Below, piece after piece: positions 12,456 to 14,693 of a DNA stretch of 64,000 bases; position 1 is the stretch's first letter; each line of letters opens with the position of its first letter. The notes beneath the pieces are model-generated. The model saw nothing but the letters and a program-made list of their open reading frames with translations. It searched no databases and was not told the DNA's origin. The DNA lies in NCBI RefSeq assembly GCF_054482595.1, contig NZ_CM137008.1. One strand, given 5' to 3'. The position numbers and the translations under genes were made by a program.

Positions 12456-14693
12456 GTGGACTGGCTTCTTGATGTTTTTGCTACCTGGCTCTACGGCTTA
12501 AAAGTAATCGCGATAACGTTAGCGGTCATCATGTTCATCAGCGGGCTGGACGATTTTTTTATTGATGTCGTCTACTGGGTACGCCGCATTAAACGCAAGT
12601 TGAGTGTTTATCGCCGCTACCCGCGAATGAGTTACCGCGAACTGTATAAACCAGATGAAAAACCGTTAGCGATTATGGTTCCGGCGTGGAATGAAACGGG
12701 CGTCATCGGCAATATGGCCGAGCTGGCGGCGACCACGCTCGACTACGAAAACTATCATATCTTTGTTGGCACCTACCCCAACGACCCGGACACTCAGCGT
12801 GATGTTGACGAAGTGTGCGCTCGCTTCCCGAATGTGCATAAGGTAGTCTGCGCGCGTCCTGGCCCCACCAGCAAAGCTGACTGTCTGAACAACGTGCTGG
12901 ACGCCATCACCCAATTTGAGCGTAGCGCCAATTTCGCTTTTGCTGGTTTTATTCTGCATGACGCCGAAGACGTAATTTCACCGATGGAGTTGCGTCTGTT
13001 CAACTATCTGGTCGAGCGTAAAGATCTGATTCAGATCCCGGTGTATCCGTTTGAACGCGAATGGACGCACTTCACCAGCATGACTTACATTGATGAGTTT
13101 TCAGAGCTGCATGGCAAAGATGTTCCGGTGCGTGAAGCCCTCGCCGGACAAGTGCCCAGCGCAGGCGTCGGCACCTGTTTCAGCCGCCGCGCCGTGACCG
13201 CACTGTTAGCTGACGGTGACGGTATTGCTTTCGACGTGCAGAGTCTTACTGAAGATTACGACATTGGCTTCCGCCTGAAAGAAAAAGGTATGACGGAAAT
13301 TTTTGTCCGTTTTCCGGTGGTGGACGAAGCCAAAGAACGCGAACAGCGTAAATTTTTACAGCACGCACGGACATCAAACATGATCTGCGTGCGCGAATAT
13401 TTCCCCGATACCTTTTCGACTGCGGTTCGACAAAAATCCCGCTGGATCATCGGCATTGTTTTCCAGGGCTTTAAAACCCATAAATGGACCTCCAGCCTGA
13501 CGCTGAACTACTTTCTCTGGCGCGACCGCAAAGGGGCAATCAGTAACTTTGTCAGCTTCCTCGCGATGCTGGTGATGATCCAGCTTTTGCTATTGCTGGC
13601 GTATGAAAGTTTGTGACCCGATGCCTGGCATTTCCTTTCTATTTTTAGCGGCAGCGCATGGTTAATGACCCTGCTGTGGCTAAACTTTGGCTTGATGGTT
13701 AACCGCATTGTGCAGCGGGTGATTTTTGTCACTGGCTACTACGGCCTCACGCAGGGCCTGCTTTCCGTCCTGCGTCTTTTCTGGGGCAACCTGATTAACT
13801 TTATGGCTAACTGGCGCGCGCTGAAACAGGTTCTTCAGCACGGCGATCCGCGTCGCGTGGCGTGGGATAAAACAACGCATGACTTCCCCAGCGTGACTGG
13901 CGATACCCGCTCGTTGCGCCCGTTAGGTCAAATTCTGCTGGAAAATCAGGTCATCACTGAAGAACAACTCGATACAGCATTGCGTAATCGCGTCGAAGGT
14001 CTACGCCTGGGCGGTTCAATGCTGATGCAGGGGCTGATTAGCGCCGAGCAACTGGCACAGGCGCTGACAGAGCAAAACAGCGTGGCGTGGGAGTCGATCG
14101 ATGCCTGGCAGATCCCTGCCTCGCTGATTGCCGAAATGCCAGCCTCCGTAGCGCTGCATTATGCAGTACTGCCGCTGCGTCTGGAAAATGATGAGTTAAT
14201 TGTCGGCAGTGAAGATGGTATTGACCCGGTTTCGCTGGCGGCCCTGACGCGTAAAGTCGGACGCAAAGTGCGTTACGTCATTGTTCTGCGGGGACAAATT
14301 GTCACGGGGTTACGTCACTGGTATGCACGCCGACGCGGTCACGATCCGCGGGCAATGTTGTACAATGCGGTTCAGCATCAGTGGCTCACGGAACAGCAGG
14401 CCGGTGAAATCTGGCGGCAATATGTGCCGCATCAGTTCCTGTTCGCCGAAATACTGACCACGCTCGGTCATATTAATCGTTCAGCAATTAACGTGTTGTT
14501 ATTGCGCCATGAACGCAGTTCTCTGCCGCTCGGCAAGTTTTTGGTCACCGAAGGCGTTATCAGCCAGGAAACGTTGGATCGCGTCCTGACAATTCAACGC
14601 GAATTACAAGTTTCGATGCAATCACTATTACTCAAAGCAGGTTTAAACACAGAACAGGTTGCGCAACTGGAGTCCGAAAATGAAGGAGAATAA
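12456..14693 (+). pseudogene. nfrB: nfrB (phage N4 adsorption protein B, glycosyltransferase) interrupted by an in-frame TGA at 13614..13616
   Basis: ORFs 12456..13616 (386 aa) and 13665..14693 are in the same frame; the single TGA splits ...LAYESL*PDAWHF...; read-through length is 386+1+358 = 745 codons, the recalled size of intact NfrB. GTG start. Confidence 0.8.

Follow-up and report, generated by a model that had tools for sequence, protein, structure and literature searches.

Is the in-frame opal codon that interrupts nfrB in this genome real, and, if so, what has become of the gene? We addressed this question in a window of 64,000 nucleotides (one strand of contig NZ_CM137008.1, NCBI RefSeq assembly GCF_054482595.1), in which the whole nfrB locus occupies positions 12456–14693 on the plus strand. 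Its translation in a single frame runs to 746 codons, including the terminal TAA, and the only stops are this TAA and a TGA at codon 387. The letters at 13605–13622 read GAA AGT TTG TGA CCC GAT; the premature opal codon, W387*, thus lies at 13614–13616, with a C as the next base. The 5′ part of the gene (12456–13616) has a GTG start and comprises codons 1–386 plus the premature TGA, while the 3′ remnant (13617–14693) continues in frame with codons 388–745 and the TAA. The limits of the locus coincide with those of nfrB in the RefSeq/PGAP annotation of the closest public genomes. Within the remnant, the list of open reading frames (ORFs) includes a 342-aa ORF (M404–E745; 13665–14693, plus strand), which gene callers report as a separate gene.

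An initial annotation, made from the letters of the window, had described two nfrB ORFs in one frame that together read through to 745 codons, and had stated that truncation at 386 aa would strip the C-terminal half. Both the ORF list and the one-frame translation bear out the common frame, the translation yields the expected length, and the truncation removes 359 C-terminal residues. Because the TGA at codon 387 breaks the 745-codon ORF, we class the locus as a pseudogene and not as a functional member of the NfrB family.

The remainder of the nfrBA-ybcH operon is open. The first 14 nt of nfrA (14680–17652, plus strand; 990 aa) are shared with the end of nfrB, and the third gene, ybcH (17653–18543, plus strand; 296 aa, DUF4434), comes next; nfrA and ybcH are both identical to the copies in relatives with an intact nfrB and are intact, as had been annotated. 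The locus resembles that of K-12 in its location downstream of cusS, its 745 codons, the numbering of D169, D267, W330, L490, G491 and L537, and the 14-nt overlap with nfrA, followed by ybcH. It differs from K-12 in codon 387, which is TGA instead of TGG and by which only residues 1–386 are made, and in an A538T substitution.

The ancestral codon was identified by comparison with intact alleles. A megablast search with nfrB against 5,426 complete E. coli genomes gave matches in 5,092 of them. Four close relatives, XH990, GF66.1, THO-010 and DETEC-C31, have TGG at codon 387 and specify the intact 745-aa protein WP_021556574.1; the window's nfrB differs from these four alleles only at 13616 and at 14067, the latter change being private to the window. 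Since the intact alleles otherwise differ at nothing but this window-private site, the lesion is a single G-to-A transition at 13616 (TGG to TGA). The proposal that one base change in a Trp codon had created the stop, for which the ancestral codon had remained to be established, is therefore upheld: the nearest intact relatives carry TGG.

A single-base difference could in principle be a sequencing or assembly error over a true TGG, and that it is one base and nothing more is all that speaks for such an error. The same base occurs in four independent complete genomes, those of strains Santai (O157:H16, from duck), SM107 (human urine), W619 (pig) and AHM21C2872I (environment), all from China, and in the RefSeq/PGAP annotation of these four genomes nfrB is marked as “pseudo, internal stop”. 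Of 5035 complete E. coli genomes, 4, from different laboratories and hosts, contain an identical 71-mer spanning the TGA. Moreover, the Logan read assembly SRR23529590 is identical to the window over 12228–19560, and 142 contigs (NCBI, ENA, Logan) have the very same 386-aa product on record.

Furthermore, when compared with their nearest TGG relatives over window positions 1–37000, the five genomes with TGA have three derived sites in common, namely 154 (in ybdF), 13616 (in nfrB) and 30480 (in lpxH). Because these three derived sites are shared, the TGA genomes form a clade and the base is inherited, and we rejected an error at 13616, to which we assign a negligible probability. The W387* clade, which includes the O157:H16 strain Santai, is small and recent, with three fixed SNPs in 37 kb. 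With a sense codon one base away in the closest intact orthologues and a lesion that is inherited, nfrB in this genome should be annotated as a pseudogene.

The stop separates the catalytic from the regulatory part of the protein. In Pfam searches, the glycosyltransferase family 2 (GT2) domain is recognised by Glyco_tranf_2_3 (PF13641; residues 70–332, E = 6e-35) and Glyco_trans_2_3 (PF13632; residues 165–382, E = 2e-40), and its DxD, TED and QxxRW motifs are present as D169, T265-E266-D267 and Q326-K-S-R-W330, all upstream of the stop. The 5′ part (residues 1–386) encodes the N-terminal transmembrane helix, the GT2 domain and the first linker transmembrane helix, a strongly hydrophobic stretch at approximately residues 362–385. 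In NfrB, the domains are joined by a pair of putative transmembrane helices (Junkermeier & Hengge, PMC8669469), and W387* falls in the short loop just past the first of these two. The C-terminal MshEN domain (Pfam; residues 545–628, E = 1e-13) is encoded in the nfrB reading frame, yet 3′ of the premature stop. The solved N-terminal c-di-GMP-binding domains of MshE, PilF and PilB (PDB) align to residues 487–623, and the c-di-GMP contact residues L490, G491, L505, L509, L518, G519 and L537 are conserved, all of them downstream of the stop. According to the domain assignments, the 386-aa product keeps the catalytic GT2 domain and is deprived of the second helix, of MshEN as its c-di-GMP sensor and of the C-terminal domain; the 3′ remnant is left untranslated, barring read-through or re-initiation.

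The genetics of the system are well documented. NfrB, NfrA and YbcH constitute a system for exopolysaccharide synthesis and export, and phage N4 uses the product, the N4 glycan receptor (NGR), as its initial receptor (PMC8669469, PMC8669472). N4 infection is abolished by deletion of nfrB as well as by mutations in the glycosyltransferase active site, and also by G491L in the MshEN region, NfrB residues 414–745, which bind c-di-GMP (PMC8669469, PMC8669472). Deletion of nfrB further makes cells fully or partially resistant to Vequintavirinae, phi92-like and Enquatrovirus phages (PMC8669472). A genome-wide transposon screen under N4 selection showed strong enrichment of knock-outs of nfrA and nfrB (PMC7553319), and phage-resistant mutants selected in the laboratory from a wild isolate carry frameshifts or stops in nfrB and regain sensitivity upon complementation with nfrB (bioRxiv 10.1101/2024.11.29.626071).

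Against this background, we consider W387* very probably a genuine, inherited nonsense allele of nfrB that entails loss of function in the N4-glycan-receptor synthase, if possibly with slight leakiness. The intact NfrB is an inner-membrane, family-2 glycosyltransferase that is activated by c-di-GMP and takes part with NfrA and YbcH in the production and export of NGR. With W387*, translation ends after the first linker helix and gives a product that lacks the MshEN sensor. As function requires activation, through MshEN, by c-di-GMP that DgcJ makes, we infer that the truncated enzyme is inactive. No NGR, or very little, would be expected on the cell, because the 386-residue protein could not be activated by c-di-GMP and is short of one membrane helix. 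The strain would then be predicted to resist N4-like and other NGR-dependent phages (Vequintavirinae, phi92-like). This phage-resistance reading, already put forward in the initial annotation, agrees with the published genetics, in which nfrB deletion mutants are resistant and G491L, a substitution downstream of the position of our stop, abolishes infection.

The lesion may also extend its effect to the genes downstream. In classical nonsense polarity, an untranslated stretch may lower the expression of the genes that follow it. Here, 1,063 untranslated nt precede nfrA and translational coupling would be lost, possibly resulting in a polar drop in nfrA and ybcH expression. A scan of the untranslated 3′ part of nfrB for internal promoter and terminator patterns gave counts no higher than those in shuffled sequence. 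Apart from A538T, neither nfrA and ybcH nor the 3′ part of nfrB have decayed further, which would fit a very recent event and would fit residual function as well.

Residual function could arise by read-through. The base after the UGA is a C and the downstream frame is fully open. Poole and co-workers are said to have found in 1995 that a C after UGA is the weakest context for release factor RF2. In strains other than K-12, RF2 is more efficient and read-through is reduced, which counts against a leaky stop in the strain studied here. UGA is the leakiest stop in E. coli, and its read-through, which arises by competition between Trp-tRNATrp and RF2, amounts in K-12 to approximately 2% at 37 °C and 4% at 25 °C (PMC10570021). 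Since such an event would restore the wild-type Trp at codon 387, the strain may produce NfrB of wild-type length at a level of a few per cent, maybe unevenly distributed among cells, and this low level might suffice for partial display of NGR. Against such a hypomorph stands that the read-through product would here carry A538T beside the contact residue L537, and that other natural nfrB nulls (described below) use TAG as often as TGA and include insertions of IS elements, from which full loss is clearly tolerated and recurrent. The allele may be a strong hypomorph and not a strict null, but we consider it unlikely that leakiness matters for the phenotype.

Programmed recoding of the UGA, be it as selenocysteine or by regulated read-through, has nothing but the identity of the codon in its favour. 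Starting at the stop, a stretch of 70 nt is no more prone to fold than shuffled sequences (z = 0.03), Rfam has no match in 13300–14000, and neither a SECIS-type stem-loop nor a conserved UGA was found. Moreover, relatives with TGG have identical flanks, and TGA at codon 387 occurs in just 9 of approximately 5040 complete genomes. In the lack of structure beyond that of shuffled sequence and of an Rfam match, and with TGG in the relatives, we discarded recoding as having next to no likelihood.

The two ORFs might also specify a functional split enzyme, in which the 386-aa glycosyltransferase fragment and a re-initiated 342-aa M404–E745 fragment would assemble in trans and keep regulated activity. 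Both ORFs are intact, the ATG at 13665 sits 48 nt past the stop, and the same two-ORF layout persists in a widespread lineage with another stop, Q376*. On the other hand, there is no convincing Shine-Dalgarno-like sequence upstream of the ORF at 13665, and M404 lies inside the second linker helix, which would be truncated by re-initiation there. We found no published precedent for a split NfrB, and the breaks in nfrB differ in position among lineages and include IS insertions, which is the pattern of a gene being lost and not that of a conserved split. A working split enzyme thus appears most improbable, and we retain W387* as a loss-of-function allele.

The loss of nfrB is not confined to this clade. 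The same codon change, TGG to TGA at codon 387, is present in a second haplotype, represented by three draft genomes and five complete ones (e.g., strain 19SZHZ713Rt; one copy of this haplotype lies at NZ_CP080070.1 3350714–3352951), in which cusRS is replaced by ISAs1 and RHS sequences located 5′ of nfrB. Besides A538T, the nfrB of the second haplotype differs from that of the window at 36 sites. None of these is closer to the TGA than 24 nt on its upstream side and 30 nt on its downstream side. Within codons 1–386 the two haplotypes differ at 12 nucleotides, all of them synonymous changes, and the second haplotype likewise encodes the exact 386-aa fragment. Strain CFSAN061761 has an intact sister of the second haplotype that differs from it at the W387* base alone. 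Since this intact sister differs at nothing else, the codon-387 change most parsimoniously arose twice; if conversion were the cause instead, its tract could not exceed 53 bp. A deamination hotspot at a Dcm site (CCWGG) was considered as a source of the recurrent G-to-A change and rejected upon inspection, as the complementary-strand context, GGGCCA, is not a Dcm site.

Other nonsense alleles affect the same stretch of the gene. Q376* (TAG) occurs in 94 of 5,044 complete genomes, and the corresponding C-terminal ORF is recorded on more than 1,000 contigs; this allele is represented in our comparison by the loci L012, L015, L016 and L023 (e.g., NZ_CP027134.1 1410385–1412622). W391* (TAG) was found in one locus (L013), and W344* on three haplotypes, twice as TGA and once as TAG. 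The codon-387 mutation would have arisen on two or more occasions, and W344* on three or more. We identified these nonsense alleles through protein clusters of similar length, and because of this the concentration of stops between codons 344 and 391 reflects ascertainment and not a mutational hotspot. In the older Q376* lineage, nfrA is also split in L014 and L016, but L014 has many frameshifts, as low-quality assemblies typically do, and we gave these splits no weight.

In addition, nfrB is disrupted by insertion of ISVsa5, IS1, IS3 or IS903B (e.g., NZ_CP070906.1, NZ_CP114792.1, NZ_AP021894.1 and NZ_CP090305.1); no nfrB match was obtained in 334 of the 5,426 complete genomes, and 61 more are without a match in a single place that covers at least 80% of the gene. 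When genomes without a match, with a split gene, with Q376* and with W387* are taken together, at least some 9% of complete E. coli genomes are without an intact nfrB. What emerges is a conserved gene that has been lost over and over, in keeping with a phage receptor subject to a fitness trade-off. Recurrent identical nonsense mutations and losses at this frequency illustrate such a trade-off around a conserved surface-glycan receptor, which Sellner et al. (2021) have already stated in qualitative terms.

Why the W387* allele has spread may be viewed in more than one way. NfrB-dependent exopolysaccharide impedes motility (PMC8669469), and Sellner et al. (2021, PMC8669472), who had come across some E. 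coli with nfrB or dgcJ disrupted by an insertion element, a deletion or a premature stop, ascribed such natural disruptions to the fitness costs of expressing the genes. A true null whose spread is due to drift, or to relief from the cost of the glycan (e.g., interference with motility), and not to selection by phage, would be consistent with these reports and with a clade that is small and very young, given its three fixed SNPs in 37 kb. What speaks against it is loss by many independent routes of a protein that is otherwise strongly conserved, as seen in 36 of the 37 differences between the W387* haplotypes, which are synonymous in the first 386 codons or lie downstream. We regard a spread by drift or cost saving as possible, if on the whole rather doubtful. 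The recurrent losses would argue for selection over pure drift, without pointing to the selective agent; phage pressure on the one hand and cost saving or drift on the other are inseparable by sequence data alone. O-antigen or capsule might already block the phages concerned, in which case W387* would be silent with respect to phage.

One could go further and propose that nfrB is under ongoing selection for repeated inactivation in wild E. coli and that “soft” knock-outs by an opal codon at a Trp position are favoured, as stochastic read-through by tRNATrp would restore wild-type NfrB in a minority of cells and so hedge bets between phage resistance and glycan display, and a single transition would revert the allele. 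We consider this proposal quite improbable.

The W387* allele takes its place among known losses of the NGR pathway. Natural disruptions of nfrB or dgcJ (e.g., in all B strains; Sellner et al. 2021) and the absence of nfrAB from BL21 (Mutalik et al. 2020) have the same outcome, natural loss of the pathway, but in the strain studied here it comes about by a point nonsense mutation and not by IS insertion or deletion, and in a small animal- and human-associated clade. None of the publications consulted names the W387* allele, and a literature search combining nfrB with pseudogene or nonsense returned no relevant paper. Q376*, W391*, W344* and the W387* of the second haplotype have in common with the window's allele that one base change creates a stop within the same part of nfrB, that a glycosyltransferase ORF stands next to an MshEN ORF, and that nfrA and ybcH are open; they differ from it in codon, in haplotype or in both, and Q376* is far commoner. 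Mutants selected in the laboratory (nfr stands for N4 resistance; strain TK001) also have frameshifts or stops in nfrB and can be complemented, but arose under deliberate phage selection. In this respect, nfrB of the window is an ordinary pseudogene in a well-characterised system, already annotated as such, and natural disruption of the gene has been noted before (Sellner et al. 2021); the recurrence of an identical mutation is a modestly interesting detail of population genetics. For the strain and its clade, to which O157:H16 Santai belongs, we predict resistance to N4-like and other NGR-dependent phages, which bears on the choice of phages for therapy or typing.

Downstream of the stop, the window-private G-to-A change at 14067 (plus strand) converts GCA to ACA and results in A538T, which adjoins L537, one of the c-di-GMP contacts. 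None of the 5426 complete genomes has this change, and it was found in one Logan contig, SRR23529590. The substitution is compatible with relaxed constraint, which is suggestive and not significant: with some two to four private SNPs in 64 kb, the chance that one falls in the 1.1-kb dead segment is approximately 6%.

A second window-private G-to-A change, at 8123 in cusB (minus strand), specifies T53M in CusB, where all seven close relatives have ACG. Two more differences from Santai, close to each other at 55589 and 55641, are located in the region of the variable 3′ end of a core gene of an RHS element (approximately 55625–59827, minus strand) and may reflect variation of the RHS tip rather than point mutation. 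The gene for the fimbrial usher, sfmD (22033–24642, minus strand), also carries an in-frame stop, a TAG at codon 172 (24127–24129), and is marked “pseudo, internal stop” in all close relatives; as these include relatives with an intact nfrB, the sfmD lesion is older than the one in nfrB. Lastly, the nitroreductase gene nfsB in DETEC-C31 (locus positions 12348–13001, corresponding to 348–1001 of the window) has an internal stop, a lesion typical of nitrofuran resistance, while the window's nfsB matches the intact allele.
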